Made by a program: the position numbers and the translations under genes
In this document: positions 4,538-63,133 of the stretch, piece after piece
Numbering within the stretch: position 1 is the stretch's first letter
How the letters are laid out: each line of letters opens with the position of its first letter
Notes under the pieces: model-generated
The model's input: the letters and a program-made list of their open reading frames with translations, nothing else
Databases searched by the model: none
Told to the model about the DNA's origin: nothing
NCBI GenBank assembly: GCA_965216755.1
Contig: CBDCGL010000011.1
Coordinates: forward strand, 2,816,001-2,880,000
Reading direction: 5' to 3'
Source of the DNA: Alphaproteobacteria bacterium
GTDB taxonomy: Bacteria > Pseudomonadota > Alphaproteobacteria > UBA7887
Length of the DNA stretch: 64,000 nt

Positions 4538-6917
<2,380 letters not shown>

Positions 6918-6922
6918 CTGTT

Positions 6923-7333
6923 ATGGCCGACAAGGTTGAATTCGAACTCGTCTCGCCCGAAGCCCTGGTCGAATCGCGCCAGGTCGACATGGTCGTCGTG
7001 CCTGGAGAGGAAGGCGATTTCGGTGTGCTGCCGGGCCATGCGCCCTTCATCTCCCAAGTACGCCCGGGGTTGATCGAAATCTATGATGGTCAGAACGTCA
7101 CCGATCGCCTGTTCGTCGACGGCGGGTTTGCCGAGGTCACGCCGGAACGCTGCACGGTGCTGGTCCAGGAAGCGGTGCCGCTTGGCAACTTGGATCGCGA
7201 CATGGTCGATGCGCGCATCAAAGCCGCCCGTTTAGCCATAGAGGACGCCCAAAACGACGCCGAACGCGACGCCGCGGCCCACCGCCTCAAAATAGCCGAG
7301 AGCATGCAAGAGGTGCTCGCCGCCGCCCTTTAG
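6923..7333 (+). CDS. atpC: ATP synthase F1 subunit epsilon
   Basis: FELVSPE, GEEGDFGVLPGHAP, GGFAEV; last gene of the F1 operon. Confidence 0.97.
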   Translation: MADKVEFELVSPEALVESRQVDMVVVPGEEGDFGVLPGHAPFISQVRPGLIEIYDGQNVTDRLFVDGGFAEVTPERCTVLVQEAVPLGNLDRDMVDARIKAARLAIEDAQNDAERDAAAHRLKIAESMQEVLAAAL

Positions 7334-7544
7334 CGGCATTTCCGTCAGGGCATTTCGCAACGCATCATCAGATGACCGTCCGTGCTGCGCAAAACAGGCC
7401 GATCGAGCAATGGCCATCACTGTCTAATTCGTTGCGAAATCGTGTCATTTCACGTCTATTACATTCTTAGGCGGCTCAGCGTTTGCCGCCGAGGTCACAT
7501 TGCTTTAGGCTTATCATAACGATGTCATCATCACACGAACGGGC

Positions 7545-8360
7545 ATGAAGGACTGGTCACTCGACGACATTCCCTGGCACGCTTTCCAGGCAGACAAAGT
7601 GGATCCGCAGTTGCTGGGCGCGGTCAAGGCCGCGGCGCTGGTCGAACATAACGGCCGCGACTACGAAACATACCTGCACAATGTCTTCCACAATGAACCC
7701 GACTTTTGCGACACCGTCACGAAATGGGCGGCGGAAGAAGTGCGCCATGGCGAAGCACTGGGTCGCTGGGCGGGGTTGGCCGACCCGGAGTTCGATTTCA
7801 CGGCGTGTTTTGGCCGCTTTCGATCCGGCTATCAATTGCCGCTAAAGGCATCCGATTCCGTGCGCGGTTCGCAGGCGGGCGAACTGGTCGCGCGCTGCGT
7901 CGTCGAATCTGGAACTTCATCCTTTTATTCCGCCATGCGCCACGCTGCCGACGAACCGGTTTTACAAGAGATATGCCGTTTGATCGCGGCGGACGAATTT
8001 CGCCATTACAAATTGTTCTACGATGGGCTAATGCGCTATGTGCGCAGCGGCGAGATCGGTCGTGCTCGGCGAATTATGATTGCATTGAGCCGCGTCATCG
8101 AATCCGAGGATGAAGAACTCGCCTATGCGTATCATTGTGGCAACAAGCTGCCTGAGCCCTTCGACCGGCGCGCCTGCAGCCGCGCCTATGCGCGCCGCGC
8201 CTATCGCCTATATCGATTCGGCCATTTGCGCCAGGGGCTTGGCATGACTCTGAAGGCCGCCGGGCTGAAACCGTATGGCCGGATCGGCACGGCGCTCAGC
8301 CGCCTGTCATGGCGCTTCATGCAGTTTCGGATCCGCATGTTGGACCGGGTGGCGGCCTGA
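7545..8360 (+). CDS. Ferritin-like di-iron carboxylate protein (acyl-ACP desaturase/rubrerythrin-like)
   Basis: Two ExxH motifs (EEVRH, DEFRH), each preceded by a conserved Glu (ALVE, CVVE); N-terminal WSLDDIPW. Confidence 0.8.
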   Translation: MKDWSLDDIPWHAFQADKVDPQLLGAVKAAALVEHNGRDYETYLHNVFHNEPDFCDTVTKWAAEEVRHGEALGRWAGLADPEFDFTACFGRFRSGYQLPLKASDSVRGSQAGELVARCVVESGTSSFYSAMRHAADEPVLQEICRLIAADEFRHYKLFYDGLMRYVRSGEIGRARRIMIALSRVIESEDEELAYAYHCGNKLPEPFDRRACSRAYARRAYRLYRFGHLRQGLGMTLKAAGLKPYGRIGTALSRLSWRFMQFRIRMLDRVAA

Positions 8361-8584: not shown

Positions 8585-9097
8585 ATGAACGCATTTCTGA
8601 AGATCTCGGCCGCCGTCGCTGCTTTGACCGTGGTTTCCGTTTCGGCCGCTTCGGCTGACGATGTCAACTTCGACTTCACCAAGGTTAAGCAAAAAGCCGC
8701 CGTCGTGAACGTTCTGTCGAACAACGACTTCGGCAAGGAAAGCGGCGCCAAGAAGGGTGGCCTGACGGTCAACGGTGTGCTGCAGGATGCGGTCATCGCC
8801 GAGGGCAATGCCACGGTCGCGGTTGGCAACTACGCCGACGCCCGCACCCGGATCGGCACGGTCGAGAACGGTGAGATCAACGGTGTGATGCAGCGTGCCG
8901 TGATCGCCAAGGACAACGCCAACGTCGCCTACGGCAACTACGCCTACAGCCGCCTGCACATCGGCACGGCGCGTGACATCGAGGTCAATGGTGTTGTGCA
9001 GCAGGCCGTGATCGCGAAGCGCAACGCGGCGGTGTCTGTCGGCAACCACACCACCACCTGCATGGAGATTGGCACGCTCGGCACCCCCACTTGCTAA
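8585..9097 (+). CDS. Secreted protein with three 36-aa repeats; putative beta-solenoid/functional amyloid major subunit
   Basis: AGGGGA RBS; Sec signal ending ASA; three repeats at exact 108-nt spacing; C-x10-C at the C-terminus; strongly biased codons. The CDS is solid; the function is inferred. Confidence 0.85.
   Translation: MNAFLKISAAVAALTVVSVSAASADDVNFDFTKVKQKAAVVNVLSNNDFGKESGAKKGGLTVNGVLQDAVIAEGNATVAVGNYADARTRIGTVENGEINGVMQRAVIAKDNANVAYGNYAYSRLHIGTARDIEVNGVVQQAVIAKRNAAVSVGNHTTTCMEIGTLGTPTC
8762..9094 (+). repeat. Three tandem imperfect 108-nt (36-aa) coding repeats
   Basis: AAYGGTGT anchors at 8771, 8879 and 8987; consensus [VI]NGVxQxAVIAxxNAxVxxGNxxxxxxxIGT. Confidence 0.92.
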
Positions 9098-9126: not shown

Positions 9127-9166
9127 GAGGGCGGGACCCGCGGAAACGCATACGGGTTCCGCTCTT
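9127..9166 (+). other. Strong intergenic RNA hairpin (mRNA stabiliser or partial terminator)
   Basis: GAGGGCGGGACCCG pairs with CGGGTTCCGCTCTT (14 bp including G-U); inner cg-GAAA-cg GNRA loop; no long U tract. Confidence 0.7.
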
Positions 9167-9233
9167 CGCTGCGAAACCAAGACATCAGCCCGAACGGCAC
9201 CGTTCGCAACCAATGCCAACAAGGATACCGACC

Positions 9234-9539
9234 ATGACCAAAGCAGCTTTCGTGATCGCGTTCGCCAGCGCCCTGACCATGGCCGCCGCCACCGGCGCCA
9301 GCGCTAAAGAGTTCAATCAGCGGCCCCATTTGGATTCGGGCTCTCAGTCGCGCGTCAACAGCGCGTTTGCCAAGACCTTCCTGAACCGCGGCCAAGCCCG
9401 CCGTTTGGAAGATCGCGCCAGCGACTGCGGCAATGTCAGCATCGGCAACGTCGATCCGGGCAATGGCCAAGCCCCGCGCGAGATTATCGTCGTAGCCAAG
9501 AACGTCATCAACGTTGTCGGCCCCGGCGGCTGTCGCTGA
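9234..9539 (+). CDS. Small secreted two-Cys protein related to the upstream repeat; putative nucleator/cap subunit
   Basis: AAGGA RBS before ATG 9234; Sec signal ending ASA; C-x34-C enclosing a segment similar to the upstream repeat. Confidence 0.8.
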   Translation: MTKAAFVIAFASALTMAAATGASAKEFNQRPHLDSGSQSRVNSAFAKTFLNRGQARRLEDRASDCGNVSIGNVDPGNGQAPREIIVVAKNVINVVGPGGCR

Positions 9540-9578: not shown

Positions 9579-9875
9579 TCACCGACCGATCGAAACTGGC
9601 GCGAGCGCCGGAAAGCGCACCACATAGTAGGGGGGCGCCGAGTCATTGACGCCCCCGTTGAGGCGCGCGGACTTGTGGAGACGATTCACAGCCGCGTAAA
9701 TGTAGTTATCCGGACCGGTCGCAAATCCATCCGGCCAGTCGAGAAGATCATCGTCGGACACCAGCAGCTCATACGTGCCATCCGGCCGCGTCACGCCGAT
9801 GCCCTTGGCGTTCATATCCGTGATGTAGACATTGCCGTGATCATCAATGGTGATGCCACCGCAGGGCGGCGCATT
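9579..9875 (-). pseudogene. C-terminal remnant of a major royal jelly protein/yellow-like (SMP-30-related) beta-propeller gene
   Basis: Frame reads GGITIDDHGNVYITDMN...LLDWPDGF...IYAAVNRLH...YYVVRF; in-frame TGA just upstream and no N-terminal part seen. Confidence 0.7.
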
Positions 9876-10036: not shown

Positions 10037-10348
10037 TTAGTCCTGCGACGAATCGATAATGATCTCGTCACCGTTGCCGTCGTCTTCGGTTTGGTCTGAT
10101 GTCGGCGCGTCATCCGCGCCCTCGTCCGTTTCGGTAGGCACCTGCGGAACGGTGGGCATCGGCAGGGGTTGCGCCTCTTCAAGCCGCTCGGGAGTCCAGA
10201 ATTCTTCGTCCTCAGTGGTCTGTTCGGGCGCGTCTTTTCTTTCAACCTCGGTGTCTTTACGATCATCGTCACCACGTTCGGCGGCGCCCGCACCAGTCAT
10301 GTGCATTGCTATTCCAATCCAAATCAGGGCCACTATTTCACGTTTCAC
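10037..10348 (-). CDS. Small secreted acidic protein; stand-alone protease pro-peptide homolog
   Basis: AAGGAGG RBS 8 nt before GTG; signal peptide; FWTPERLEEAQPLPMP motif matches the pro-region of the adjacent protease. Confidence 0.75.
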   Translation of the reverse strand: MKREIVALIWIGIAMHMTGAGAAERGDDDRKDTEVERKDAPEQTTEDEEFWTPERLEEAQPLPMPTVPQVPTETDEGADDAPTSDQTEDDGNGDEIIIDSSQD

Positions 10349-10374
10349 ACGCACCGCCTCCTTCTAACGGGATC

Positions 10375-10415: not shown

Positions 10416-11423
10416 TCAATTGCACCGCGCGTCAACGTAGCGGAGCAAGCGCCAGGTGTTGCGATCAAAATACGGGCCCCACATTTCCTTTGGGCTGTTT
10501 ATGTATTTGAATGAGTTCAGGCCGATTGCGTAGTTGTTTGCACCGGACTGCCCCACTTTCAAATCACCGATCCAACTGCCACCGCTGGAACCGCCACCGA
10601 AGGAATTGCGTTTCATTTCGACGACGCCATTGGTCACGCGCCCCCGCCAGCCTTCAATAACTTGCATATACTTGCCACTGTCAAAGTTGCTGGGATAGCC
10701 GATCGAATGAAATCGACGATAAGGGATGCCCGTGCGAAATCCGAGATGTCCTCCCTTTGACGCTTGCGCCATGCAAATAAACGCATAATCCCACTTGTAC
10801 GGCCATTGCGCCGTGTACCAATTCTTGTAGATGGCGATGAATCTCGGCGATGCAAGTTGACCATTGCCATTGGCGTAGGCGCGGTAAAAACGGTGATTGT
10901 TGTACCAGCGTTTGTTCCTTCGATCATAAACGCAATGTGCGGCCGTCATCAGCACACGGCGATCAGCCACATATTGTGCCGAGCAATACGCCGTTCTAGG
11001 CGTTCTAAAATAGAGTTTGCCGCCGGCGGAGAACGGGAAAACCTTTACATTCGCGCGACGTGACGCGCCAAGGGCCGGGTCTTCCAAATCCTCATCGCTG
11101 GCGTCCTCGGCCTGCGCCGACTCGATCACTTCCGGCTCTGAGTCCGCCAGTTCATCAATCATGTCGGCCTCGGTCGGCGCCAGAAACTCCTCGAATTGCT
11201 CTTCCGAGATAACCGGCAGTTCGACAGGCTCGGCAAACTCTAGCTGTTCCTCAACCCAGAAGGCGTCCGCCTCTGCCGCCATGTCCTCTTGAATTTCGAG
11301 GACATCGATAGACTGGTCTGCCGCGCCCCCTTCATCTCCAGTGTCAATATCTTGAGCAAGAGCGGTGCCCGCCAAGATCAAGCAAGCTCCGATCATGCTC
11401 ATAGGTCCACGCACACACATCAT
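10416..11423 (-). CDS. Secreted trypsin-like (S1/V8-like) serine peptidase with acidic pro-domain
   Basis: TAAHC (His), WDYAF (Asp), GGGSSGG (Ser); signal peptide ending ALA; GAGGGAGG RBS before ATG 11423. Confidence 0.88.
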   Translation of the reverse strand: MMCVRGPMSMIGACLILAGTALAQDIDTGDEGGAADQSIDVLEIQEDMAAEADAFWVEEQLEFAEPVELPVISEEQFEEFLAPTEADMIDELADSEPEVIESAQAEDASDEDLEDPALGASRRANVKVFPFSAGGKLYFRTPRTAYCSAQYVADRRVLMTAAHCVYDRRNKRWYNNHRFYRAYANGNGQLASPRFIAIYKNWYTAQWPYKWDYAFICMAQASKGGHLGFRTGIPYRRFHSIGYPSNFDSGKYMQVIEGWRGRVTNGVVEMKRNSFGGGSSGGSWIGDLKVGQSGANNYAIGLNSFKYINSPKEMWGPYFDRNTWRLLRYVDARCN

Positions 11424-12073
11424 GATTAACCTCCCTCTTTCTAAAAACCCAAGTCTCCAATAAACGAGAAACAAACATTGCAACAAACAAACCTAACCGC
11501 GTAATTTACCTGGGATTGTTTCATTCGATACCAAACATGGATTGATCGACTGCTTTCCATACTCTCTCATTGTTCAAAAATACTGTTTATATTGGTAGAC
11601 TTAATTGTCCTTTCCTCAGCATATCGCATTGCAATTACTTGCTTATTTTTTTTCTGAAAGTATTTATTTGTATTTCATTTCCTCGCGAAGGAAGAATGTC
11701 AAACAAACGCCGGCACACATTCAACATGGCGATCTGCAGGTCACCGCAGAAAGAACCCGTATTACGTGTGTTTATGGACCATAACACACGTTAAAGTCGT
11801 TATTCTACTGAAAAGATTTCCTCGGCAACAAAAAGACTGCCACCGATTCTAATTCGGGAATTTGTTATGGCATCACGCGTTTGGGGGATATTCGGTCACT
11901 CTGGTGGCACCATTCCGGCTGCGCGACTTGGACGTCAATGCCACGTAAACGCCAACAGCCGACGTAATAGTTCACGTGCGGCCAGCACGTTCTGTTTTCA
12001 TTCGTCCGACTTAAAAACAATCACAGCGACCGCTGACCTACCAAGTCGAAGCGCTGTATTGCTATCAATCGCG

Positions 12074-51287: not shown

Positions 51288-51374
51288 CCGACCACTATTC
51301 GTCCCGCTCGTCAAAAGGGTGCAAACCTTTCAAGATAGTTCCTGGCCATTCGCCACACGTTGAAGAGGGCCGCC

Positions 51375-52649
51375 ATGAATCATGTCGTTGTGCGCCTTGC
51401 GTTGCTGTTGACCCTGGGTTGGGCGACGGATGGTCCGGTCATGGCCCAGGAACCACGGATCGCCTTGGTGATCGGCAATTCGGGTTATGTCGCCATTCCG
51501 GCGCTCGCCAATCCGAAGAACGACGCCGCGTTGATCGGCGGCGCCTTGCGCGATGTCGGTTTTGACGTGGCCCTGATCACCGATGCCGACCGCGCCACCA
51601 TGGCGCGCGAGATCGCGGCGTTCGGCCGACGCTTGGAAAGTGCCGGACGTGGCGCCGTTGGTCTGTTTTATTTCGCCGGCCACGGGGTCGAAGCGGCCGG
51701 TATCAACTATCTTTTGCCGATCGGCGGCGCCATTCAAACCGAAGCCGACCTTTATGGCGAGGCCATCAGCGCCTCGTGGGTGCTCGGGCAGATGGAATAC
51801 GCCGCCAACGACCTGAACATCATCGTGTTGGACGCCTGCCGCAACAATCCGTTCAAGCGCTCATTCCGCGCCGTCAGCAATGGCTTGGCGCGCATGGACG
51901 CGCCGCGCGGCTCGTTGCTCGCCTATGCGGCCGCGCCGGGTCAGCTGGCCGAAGACGGTCTGGGAGCCAATTCAACCTATTCCTTGGCGCTGGCCAATGC
52001 GATCGCCACGCCGGGGTTGAAACTGGAGGATGTGTTCAAGCAGGTGCGGGTCAAGGTGGAAACGGTGACGCAGATCGGCCAGACACCCTGGGAAGAAAGC
52101 TCGTTGCGGGGCGATTTCTATTTCATCGCGCCAGAGGTCAATATCACGATCAACCCGACGCCACCGCCGGCCGGCCCCAGTGACGACGCGCTCTATTGGC
52201 AATCGATCAAGGATAGCGACGACCCGGCGCTTTACGCGCTTTATCTAGAGCAGTTCCCCGATGGCACATTCGCCGATTTGGCGCGCTACAAGCTCGACAA
52301 CCTCCGCCCCACGGCCGACGAAAAGGCCGCGCCGTCGCCACCGCGCGCAGGTCCCGTCACTGTTGCCCAGACCAGCCGCTATCTCGGCCAAGACGACGCA
52401 GGCGACGGCCGCTGGGCGTGGGAAATCCATCTAGAGGACACGGCCGCCAGTCTCGACCAGGTCCGAAACGTCACATATTACTTGCACCCGACCTTTCCCA
52501 ATCCGCGCCGGCAAGTCAGCGACCGCGCAAGCGGATTTCAGCTTGAAACCAGCGGTTGGGGCACGTTTATGGTCGAGTTGGATATTCAGTTTGCCGATGG
52601 GCGGGTTGAACGGCGCCATCACCAATTGGTATTCGACACCGAGCGGTAA
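51375..52649 (+). CDS. Exported caspase-like peptidase (C14) fused to a C-terminal prokaryotic YEATS-like domain
   Basis: Signal peptide; ALVIGN, AGHG and LDACR dyad; QTPW; C-terminal VTYYLHPTFPNP...GWGTF. Confidence 0.85.
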   Translation: MNHVVVRLALLLTLGWATDGPVMAQEPRIALVIGNSGYVAIPALANPKNDAALIGGALRDVGFDVALITDADRATMAREIAAFGRRLESAGRGAVGLFYFAGHGVEAAGINYLLPIGGAIQTEADLYGEAISASWVLGQMEYAANDLNIIVLDACRNNPFKRSFRAVSNGLARMDAPRGSLLAYAAAPGQLAEDGLGANSTYSLALANAIATPGLKLEDVFKQVRVKVETVTQIGQTPWEESSLRGDFYFIAPEVNITINPTPPPAGPSDDALYWQSIKDSDDPALYALYLEQFPDGTFADLARYKLDNLRPTADEKAAPSPPRAGPVTVAQTSRYLGQDDAGDGRWAWEIHLEDTAASLDQVRNVTYYLHPTFPNPRRQVSDRASGFQLETSGWGTFMVELDIQFADGRVERRHHQLVFDTER

Positions 52650-56065: not shown

Positions 56066-57253
56066 TTGAACGCACCGGGCTCACACAACTTCGACGCACG
56101 CCGGGGACGGTATGAGATTACCGCGATCGGTGGGGAAAAAGTGCGGGCGTTCGTGCCACCGCCATTGCCGCCCAGCCCGCCCATCGACCTTAATCCATTT
56201 GCACAGCTGATCGAGCAGGCAAATCGCGCACTCGGACGGCTAGAGGGGGTCGCCGCCACCCTCCCCGATGCGCAGCTATTCTTGTACATGTACGTCCGCA
56301 AGGAAGCCTTGCTTTCGTCCCAGATTGAGGGCACGCAGTCATCGCTTTCCGATTTATTGCTGTTTGAGACGTTACATGAGCCCGAATCCGCGTCGCACGA
56401 TGTCGTCGATGTTTCAAGATATGTCGCGGCTATGAATTACGGCCTCGCACGGCTGGAGAACAATTTACCACTCTCGCTGCGGCTCCTTCGGGAGGTCCAT
56501 GGCGTCCTTCTCTCCGAAGGCCGAGGCAGCGAAAAAACGCCCGGCGAATTTCGGCGTAGCCAAAATTGGATCGGTGGCAGCCGGCCGAGTGCGGCACTCT
56601 ATGTGCCACCGCCTCATCACCTCGTGATTGAATGCCTCGGCGACTTAGAGCGCTTCATGCACGCAGACACCGCACCGATGCCCTTGTTGGTCAAAGCTGG
56701 ATTGGTCCACGTGCAATTCGAATCGATACATCCTTTCTTGGATGGGAATGGTCGTCTCGGCCGTTTGCTCATCACGTTGATGCTGTGCGCGGAGGGCGTC
56801 CTCTCAGACCCTCTGTTGTATCTGAGTCTTTATTTCAAAACCCACCGCGACCGCTACTATGCGTTGTTGCAAAGGGTCCGTGAGCACGGCGATTGGGAAA
56901 GCTGGGTCGAGTTTTTTCTCACGGGGGTCAGAGACACATCTAATCAGGCCGCCGACACGGCGCGACGCATCCTGGGACTTTTTGCCCATCATCGCGATTT
57001 GATCCAAACGTTGGGACGACCGGCGCCCTCCGCACTCCGCGCGCATGACTACTTGCAGAAAAGCCCGCTGACCACGATTCCGAACATGGTTCGAGACCTC
57101 GGCATCACACATCCGACAGCAACCCGTTCGCTTGAAAACCTCCAAGAACTTGGCATTGTTCGTGAGATTTCGGGTCGCTCGCGGTTTCGCATTTACGCCT
57201 ATACCGAGTATCTCGCCATTCTCAACGAAGGGGCCGAACCACTACCTAGGTAG
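56066..57253 (+). CDS. Fic family protein (class II, C-terminal HTH)
   Basis: HPFLDGNGRLGR catalytic motif; N-terminal SSQIEG inhibitory motif; C-terminal winged-HTH-like region. Confidence 0.93.
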   Translation: MNAPGSHNFDARRGRYEITAIGGEKVRAFVPPPLPPSPPIDLNPFAQLIEQANRALGRLEGVAATLPDAQLFLYMYVRKEALLSSQIEGTQSSLSDLLLFETLHEPESASHDVVDVSRYVAAMNYGLARLENNLPLSLRLLREVHGVLLSEGRGSEKTPGEFRRSQNWIGGSRPSAALYVPPPHHLVIECLGDLERFMHADTAPMPLLVKAGLVHVQFESIHPFLDGNGRLGRLLITLMLCAEGVLSDPLLYLSLYFKTHRDRYYALLQRVREHGDWESWVEFFLTGVRDTSNQAADTARRILGLFAHHRDLIQTLGRPAPSALRAHDYLQKSPLTTIPNMVRDLGITHPTATRSLENLQELGIVREISGRSRFRIYAYTEYLAILNEGAEPLPR

Positions 57254-62449: not shown

Positions 62450-63133
62450 ATGCGGCGCCTCTGGGTTCCATTTGCCATTGCCGGGGCTATTGCTGTCGTC
62501 GCGCTTTTCGCCTTCTCGCGTCTGAACCCGGGCGCGCTCAATGACGGCGACAATGTTACCCGGTTGATTTGGGCCGCGGGCGTGTTGGTGTTGATCGGCC
62601 CCTTCGCATTCTCCGGTGGCCTGTCACGAACATTGCGCCAACTTGCGCAATGGGCGGTGGTCTTGGCGGCGCTGACCATCGGCTATCAAATCTGGCAGGA
62701 TGGTGGATTTTCCTGGGCGGGCCTGCGCGCCGCGTTCAGCCCACAGCTGGACAGCGCGGACCAAGCCGGCATTGCCCAGTTTCGCGCCAACAGTTTGGGC
62801 GAGTTTGTCGTCGAAGGAGATATCAACGGCACCCGCGTCATGTTCTTGGTCGATACCGGCGCGAGCGACCTGGTGTTGGCGCCGCGCGATGCCGAGCGCG
62901 TTGGCTTTGATCTGGCCACACTCGACTATCCGCGGGTCTACGACACCGCCAGTGGCACGGTCCGGGCCGCGCCGGTCCGTTTGGACCAGGTCAGTGTGGG
63001 CGGCGTCGCGGTCGACAATGTGCGCGCGGCCGTGTCGAGCTTCAATATGGACACGTCACTACTCGGCATGAGTTTCATCAACCGCTTGTCGGGGTTCGAA
63101 TTGCGCAATGGCGTGCTGACCCTGCACCAATAG
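62450..63133 (+). CDS. Membrane-anchored retropepsin-like (clan AA) aspartic protease
   Basis: FLVDTGAS, LLGMSF; three N-terminal TM segments. Confidence 0.9.
   Translation: MRRLWVPFAIAGAIAVVALFAFSRLNPGALNDGDNVTRLIWAAGVLVLIGPFAFSGGLSRTLRQLAQWAVVLAALTIGYQIWQDGGFSWAGLRAAFSPQLDSADQAGIAQFRANSLGEFVVEGDINGTRVMFLVDTGASDLVLAPRDAERVGFDLATLDYPRVYDTASGTVRAAPVRLDQVSVGGVAVDNVRAAVSSFNMDTSLLGMSFINRLSGFELRNGVLTLHQ

Follow-up and report, generated by a model that had tools for sequence, protein, structure and literature searches.

A secreted repeat protein and a small two-cysteine partner as a candidate curli- or holdfast-anchor-like surface assembly module in Alphaproteobacteria

Secretion channels of the CsgG type serve curli and the Caulobacter holdfast anchor. 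The rungs of curli are about 22 residues long and built of two strands, CsgC and CsgH are small periplasmic beta-sandwich proteins and, among the genes of the holdfast anchor, hfaA precedes hfaB. According to two reports available in part, Caulobacter HfaB is needed to place the multimer-forming HfaA and HfaD on the cell surface (PMC6707917; bioRxiv 10.1101/2022.07.20.500906). Here, we describe a pair of genes located in a 64,000-nucleotide stretch of an Alphaproteobacteria bacterium (assembly GCA_965216755.1, contig CBDCGL010000011.1, positions 2,816,001 to 2,880,000), hereafter the window. The first gene, which we call BIG (8585..9097, + strand), encodes a secreted repeat protein of 170 residues and the second, SMALL (9234..9539, + strand), a secreted two-cysteine protein of 101 residues. 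We tentatively propose, with a probability of roughly 45%, that BIG and SMALL form a conserved module of two genes within a so far undescribed surface assembly system akin to curli or the holdfast anchor, in which a loop of SMALL would mimic part of a BIG rung. Neither the BIG nor the SMALL family, nor the fusion of CsgG and DUF4384 encoded beside them in relatives, was found described in the literature searched (supplements not covered).

The initial annotation of this DNA had proposed that the two genes make one system, and this is well supported by gene order in relatives. Related loci were searched for by scanning genome contigs for the P-R-E...I-N stretch of SMALL, written as a degenerate DNA motif that suits one SMALL subtype only (15 of 92 stored family proteins). 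Among the 11 stretches retrieved, eight were chance matches and three contained true SMALL homologs (loci L002, L004 and L009), 35-45% identical to the window protein and originating from metagenome-assembled genomes of Alphaproteobacteria or Rhodospirillaceae. In all three loci, SMALL is immediately preceded by a BIG-family gene in the same orientation, with gaps of about 70-320 bp. As L002 and L004 are collinear from end to end, we count them as one lineage, so that three lineages, that of the window included, show the pairing. Moreover, about 50 bp 3' of SMALL, each of the three loci carries a gene for a lipoprotein of about 500 residues (L002 765..2276; L004 5279..6784, minus strand; L009 about 6577..7998), in which Pfam and NCBIfam models delineate a CsgG/HfaB-like region, a PG_binding_1 domain and DUF4384. 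In the three loci, its match to Pfam CsgG (E values of 6.6e-4 to 1.7e-3, 18.2-19.5 bits) is under the cut-off of 20.8 bits, and its sole secretion-related NCBIfam match is HfaB (NF037935; E 8.9e-8, 31.6 bits), which covers model positions 143-262 only and does not reach the 300-bit equivalog cut-off; we read the likeness to HfaB as one at superfamily level. A CsgG/HfaB-like channel is linked here to two families which have no Pfam or NCBIfam model. In L002 and L004, the only loci that reach that far, the lipoprotein is followed by a conserved two-cysteine protein of 122-129 residues belonging to no family, and then by an OmpA-like protein. No Pfam match to CsgE or CsgF was obtained, be it for SMALL and BIG (E<=1), for 46 of the 58 window open reading frames of at least 110 residues (E<=1e-5) or for the locus proteins (E<=0.1), and tblastn searches against plasmids with five queries returned nothing.

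Regarding BIG, the translation reads as a signal peptide ending in A-S-A (residues 1-24, 8585..8656), an N-terminal extension (about residues 25-60, 8657..8764) and three 36-residue repeats that are pairwise identical at 18-20 of 36 positions, all on the + strand. Repeat 1 (residues 61-96, 8765..8872) shares 20 of its 36 residues with repeat 2 (residues 97-132, 8873..8980) and 18 with repeat 3 (8981..9094), which carries the C-terminal cysteine pair C159/C170. Relatives were at first limited to one true homolog (P0005, 89% identical) and a chimeric fragment; with the locus proteins added, a profile search yielded 18 proteins and an alignment of 22 sequences. In this alignment, most of the extension of about 35 residues is an insertion in the window protein and P0005, without counterpart in the other 20 members, each member has two or three repeats and, in 21 of the 22, the terminal cysteines are 9-13 residues apart. 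The repeats fall into two subtypes, of which the window protein has the rarer one; L002 and L004 hold the commoner one only, and L009 has a gene of each (4870..5220 and 5504..5914). The window protein has no Pfam or NCBIfam family, and Pfam YadA_head is matched by two of the 22 members (best E 4.2e-5). With the family alignment, AlphaFold2 predicts residues 61-170 as all-beta with three strands per repeat, at a predicted local distance difference test score (pLDDT) of 83-93 by block, and residues 1-56 as disordered (pLDDT <50). We read this predicted fold as a beta-solenoid, making BIG a putative beta-solenoid subunit. Foldseek returned no match of the model in the PDB at E<=1e-3; the best matches, none of them significant, were FapC (E 0.026, template modelling score of 0.14-0.15) and the CsgA fibril (E 0.12), then ice-binding beta-helices. 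PDB sequence searches with the BIG and SMALL profiles likewise gave nothing credible, the best for BIG being an unrelated chain (E 0.17).

SMALL is, as initially annotated, a secreted open reading frame of 101 residues, with a mature form of 77 residues. The start at 9234 is favored over an upstream ATG at 9213 because homologs begin at the same methionine and because a ribosome-binding site, AAGGA (9221..9225), stands 8 nucleotides before it. The signal peptide, judged by eye from the translation, spans residues 1-24 (9234..9305) and ends in A-S-A, A24 being kept in 86% of the family. An exhaustive HMMER profile search (E<=1e-3) retrieved 91 cluster representatives of this family, 19 of them at E<=1e-10 and nearly all of about 100 residues, versus three relatives by a word-based search. 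One representative, P0090, was considered as a multi-repeat relative and rejected as repetitive junk, and the conservation figures given here are for 90 members. The resulting signature, which the window protein fits, consists of about 100 residues with a signal peptide, N-x-R...L-D-P-G...K-V-N, and two cysteines bracketing G-x4-G ... P-R-E ... D-[VI]-I-N, with C-G and a G-N-V-like motif also present in the loop. Conservation is shared by the mature N-terminus (residues 25-51, 9306..9386; N28 89%, A46 83%, lysine at position 40 82%, L33 70%, E26 67%), for which a helix is predicted at residues 35-51, and by the loop from C65 to C100 (9426..9533; C100 98%, G71 92%, C65 90%, N93 87%, I92 86%, G66 82%). 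Searches for domains gave no Pfam match for SMALL at E<=1, CsgF included, and no NCBIfam match, while no Pfam family is matched by more than two of the 90 members. The AlphaFold2 model (mean pLDDT 75.9) consists of the signal helix and the helix at 35-51, and Foldseek found no PDB match for it better than E 8. The 64-kb window has no second copy of SMALL or BIG; two SMALL relatives (P0001, 87%; P0002, 75%) and the BIG relative P0005 suggest further copies of the pair on the same chromosome.

The sole cysteines of SMALL are indeed C65 and C100, arranged as C-x34-C and spanning 36 residues inclusive, which the initial annotation had equated with one repeat length. This holds for the window protein. 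In the family, 86 of 90 members have exactly two cysteines and, in the 84 having such a pair, the span is anywhere between 27 and 42 residues, 33 and 37 being the commonest values (14 members each) and 36 occurring in 11. Since the span varies, the one-repeat-length spacing is a feature of the window protein and not of the family. The reported 25-residue similarity was recovered as well: SMALL residues 70-94 (9441..9515, +) align without gap to BIG residues 90-114, across the border of repeats 1 and 2, with nine identities, and this is the best 25-residue window between both mature proteins. When mature SMALL was shuffled, nine identities were reached in 8 of 200 trials and the BLOSUM score in 3 of 200; for shuffles of the Cys-Cys segment alone, the figures were 6 and 0 of 200. 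The match exceeds chance only marginally.

A family-wide resemblance is seen with a hidden Markov model (HMM) built from 63 single repeats and searched against 1264 sequences, namely the 90 SMALL members, their 90 reversals and 1084 decoy open reading frames. Five BIG open reading frames ranked first and the next ten places all went to SMALL members (best E 4.3e-4 and 6.2e-3), versus E 1.0 for the best decoy and 5.6 for the best reversed sequence. Furthermore, 40 of 90 SMALL members scored above all 20 of their own shuffles versus 4 of 90 reversed sequences, and 16 versus none exceeded the 99th percentile of shuffles. A reciprocal test was weaker (7 of 22 BIG members above all 20 own shuffles versus 1 of 22 reversed), its top decoy originating from a motif-selected locus, as expected from how the loci were chosen. 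The part of SMALL matched by the model is a rung-like strand-turn motif at about residues 83-97 (9480..9524, +) that includes I92 and the near-invariant N93, the latter aligning with a conserved asparagine of the repeat consensus. The ungapped pairwise scan and hhalign also agree on the register of the 25-residue match. We take this order-specific motif resemblance between SMALL and the BIG repeat to be real, although, being too short, it cannot prove common descent.

On this basis, the following mechanism can be envisioned. BIG would be a secreted subunit made of two or three stacked rungs of about 36 residues and closed by a C-terminal disulfide loop. The conserved, helical N-terminal half of SMALL may dock to the export machinery or the envelope, and its C-terminal loop of about 35 residues is presumably closed by a C65-C100 disulfide. 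Within this loop, the strand-turn motif would imitate the first strand and turn of a rung and the preceding I-G-x-V motif would resemble the last strand of a rung, allowing the loop to pair edge-on with, or to stack on, the open end of the BIG solenoid. SMALL could thereby start, anchor or terminate the stacking of BIG into putative surface fibres, that is, act as a nucleator or as a cap. A bolder variant, which we find unlikely, is that SMALL merges the jobs of CsgF and CsgB, its N-terminus docking to the CsgG/HfaB-like channel and its disulfide-stapled one-rung mimic templating the first beta-solenoid subunit. If true, SMALL would represent a nucleator-anchor class that is minimal and had not been recognised before, and the fibres would form a third CsgG-dependent family in Alphaproteobacteria.

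Several results weigh against the module as we propose it. Profile-profile alignment of the two families gave no significant similarity: hhalign recovered the register of the 25-residue match, but at the junction of repeats 2 and 3 instead of 1 and 2, with P 0.013 and a probability of 3.3%, and the SMALL C-terminal domain versus mature BIG reached P 0.0021 and a probability of 13%. Column shuffles attained the hhalign score in 14 of 300 cases, a rough figure only because the null is heavy-tailed (standard deviation 26.6, maximum 141). Versus single-repeat profiles, SMALL gave P 0.01 over 11 columns, P 0.021 with the commoner subtype and P 0.26 with the subtype of BIG itself, and the BLASTP alignments of SMALL with BIG were limited to the signal peptides (E 0.065) and a stretch of 11 residues (E 0.45). 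The similarity as measured is therefore not significant by the usual standards of homology. In addition, the window SMALL scores only 4.2 bits with the repeat HMM, the match is always confined to the same stretch of 11-19 residues (a rung's first strand with its turn, not a whole rung) and, as SMALL members are related to each other, the family-wide counts reflect roughly a single conserved motif and not 40 independent tests. The AlphaFold2 monomer of SMALL has no strands in residues 61-101, which include the Cys loop (pLDDT 61-76). As for the genomic evidence, pairing was sampled only among relatives with one motif subtype (15 of the 92 by count); L009 possesses two BIG paralogs, already a CsgA/CsgB-like pair, which would leave another role for SMALL; and no CsgG/HfaB-like gene was found in the 64-kb window by tblastn (E<=1) or by the Pfam sweep of its open reading frames (46 of the 58 of at least 110 residues, E<=1e-5). 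The linked CsgG/HfaB-like channel is thus seen in the related loci and not in the window, which speaks against a simple curli analogy. Altogether, the observation made in the initial annotation is partly confirmed and its interpretation partly supported: the proposal that SMALL may be a single copy of the BIG repeat is weakly supported, an order-dependent motif standing in for the full repeat, and the picture of one disulfide-locked rung is hypothetical.

The two BIG paralogs in L009, together with the tight spacing between SMALL and the channel gene, keep alive the adaptor and chaperone roles for SMALL. As a CsgF-like adaptor, SMALL would be no repeat relative: its N-terminus would plug into or bind the CsgG/HfaB-like channel, the loop would be a small domain of its own and the resemblance to a rung a coincidence of beta-strand composition. 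In all three loci, SMALL is followed after about 50 bp by the channel gene; its segment following the signal peptide is about as conserved as the loop (N28 89%, Lys40 82%, A46 83%), its profile similarity to BIG is not significant and neither the loci nor the window yielded a separate CsgE or CsgF homolog in the scans. Nevertheless, the window SMALL does not match CsgF in Pfam at E<=1, with no family being matched by more than two of the 90 members, and the repeat-HMM resemblance depends on residue order, standing above both shuffled and reversed controls. Moreover, the window pair has been kept without a channel gene within 64 kb, and SMALL therefore appears to be tied to BIG rather than to the channel. 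We consider the adaptor unlikely, though it is the rival that fares best against our proposed module.

A little less probable still is that SMALL is a periplasmic anti-polymerisation chaperone comparable to CsgC, CsgH or CsgE, which would cap BIG monomers before export and prevent their stacking in the periplasm. A precedent exists in alphaproteobacterial curli operons, where, in the part of the study available, csgH is a small extra gene always beside csgA/B (Dueholm 2012, PMC3521004). A non-extendable one-strand mimic would also make a plausible cap, and the cysteine pair of SMALL would fit a periplasmic protein oxidised by DsbA. On the other hand, AlphaFold2 renders SMALL as helix and coil and not as the beta-sandwich of CsgC and CsgH, SMALL has no Pfam match, and these data do not distinguish a periplasmic from a surface location.

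It is also conceivable, albeit rather improbable, that BIG is no fibre subunit but a monomeric or oligomeric beta-solenoid surface protein (an adhesin, or a protein with an ice- or surface-binding face) and that SMALL, although encoded in the same operon, is another envelope protein whose task has nothing to do with that of BIG. BIG has indeed only two or three rungs and a closed C-terminal disulfide loop, ice-binding beta-helices are among its fold matches, the YadA_head adhesin repeat is recognised in two of 22 members (best E 4.2e-5), and the OmpA-like protein and the peptidoglycan-binding domain of the loci suggest envelope anchoring. This is opposed by the linked CsgG/HfaB-like channel, the known clients of which multimerise according to the available parts of two reports (PMC6707917; bioRxiv 10.1101/2022.07.20.500906), and by FapC and CsgA being the top fold matches, though not significant. 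Finally, that the adjacency and the resemblance of two unrelated genes are both due to chance is disfavored and very improbable. The pairwise similarity is at noise level and the DNA just 3' of the window SMALL is a patch of gene fragments, but order and strand are the same in the window and in each of the three homologous loci, where SMALL is 35-45% identical.

In the window, the pair stands alone on the + strand among housekeeping genes, with atpG, atpD and atpC (4538..7333) and then a ferritin-like gene (7545..8360) on one flank and, on the other, a convergent block ending in lpdA and sucB. The spacer between BIG and SMALL measures 136 bp and contains a GC-rich hairpin devoid of a U-tail (9127..9166, +; z-score of the whole spacer only -1.64). 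A terminator scan of the spacer called none, and the hairpin could, as a putative attenuator, reduce read-through into SMALL. The gene fragments directly 3' of SMALL are located at 9579..9875 and 10037..10363, both on the minus strand. One is a stop-to-stop frame of about 98 C-terminal residues that looks beta-propeller-like by eye; the other has a signal peptide and an acidic region like the N-terminus of a trypsin-like peptidase encoded nearby (10416..11486, minus strand), without the peptidase domain. This peptidase was itself considered as a part of the system and rejected, being on the opposite strand and having no counterpart in the related loci. Further away, the window encodes a protein that combines a caspase domain (Peptidase_C14, E 1.4e-31) and a prokaryotic YEATS domain (E 8.6e-19) at 51360..52646 (+) as well as, amid housekeeping genes, a Fic/DOC protein (56066..57250, +) and a retropepsin-like aspartyl protease (62450..63130, +).

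If BIG stacks into fibres and SMALL controls this stacking, the pair would offer a compact and tractable model of templated beta-solenoid assembly, with two or three rungs and a one-motif partner, and a new handle for surface fibres in environmental Alphaproteobacteria. If not, two unannotated families still gain a genomic context.

Among described systems, Pseudomonas Fap, with FapC as major subunit, FapB as minor subunit or nucleator and FapF as channel, shares with our proposal the idea of a major repeat subunit and a smaller related partner, and the BIG model finds its best PDB fold match in FapC, though a non-significant one (E 0.026, template modelling score of 0.14-0.15). In contrast to Fap, the three loci showed neither a FapF-type barrel nor a FapD peptidase, and the trypsin-like peptidase of the window (10416..11486, minus strand) has no counterpart there. 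With the YadA-head repeats of trimeric autotransporter adhesins, BIG has in common an N-x-A-x-G turn motif and the YadA_head match of two of its 22 members; repeat length and context differ, an autotransporter anchor is missing and the other members do not match.

Curli comprises the major subunit CsgA, the nucleator CsgB, the channel CsgG, the accessory proteins CsgE and CsgF and, in Alphaproteobacteria, CsgH. Several features are shared with it: BIG is a secreted repeat protein predicted to form strand-turn rungs that stack and keep Asn, Gln and Gly at conserved places, the lipoprotein linked to it in relatives has weakly CsgG-like sequence, and a small accessory gene adjoins the subunit gene, as reported for csgH in the part of that study available (PMC3521004). 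Unlike curli subunits, none of the 22 BIG members matches Pfam Curlin_rpt (PF07012) at E<=1 and none contains the minimal motif X6-Q-X-G-X2-N-X10, which occurs in 5 of the 90 SMALL members. The predicted BIG rungs are of about 36 residues and three strands, SMALL, unlike CsgB, is no full-length paralog of the major subunit and contains, in its 77 mature residues, no more than part of a rung, the channel protein of the loci carries the extra PG_binding_1 and DUF4384 domains, and the Pfam scans of window and loci gave no match to CsgE or CsgF.

Finally, the holdfast anchor (HfaA, HfaB, HfaD and HfaE) is, like the present system, alphaproteobacterial and, as far as the available parts of the reports go, relies on a CsgG-like lipoprotein, HfaB, serving small multimer-forming surface proteins. 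In both, a small gene lies directly upstream of the channel gene, and HfaB is the only secretion-related NCBIfam match of the locus lipoprotein, at 31.6 bits versus the cut-off of 300. Neither SMALL nor BIG has a match among NCBIfam or Pfam models, a result to be read knowing that the presence of HfaA and HfaD models there is unconfirmed and that no direct sequence comparison with HfaA or HfaD was made. Look-alikes of BIG and SMALL in the Atlas were unnamed clusters, apart from one HfaD-labelled cluster for BIG at a low score of 0.80. SMALL was also considered as HfaE and rejected, its motifs being different and HfaE having 10 cysteines in the part of the source available. As read here, the BIG-SMALL system works like curli or the holdfast anchor and is a member of neither.

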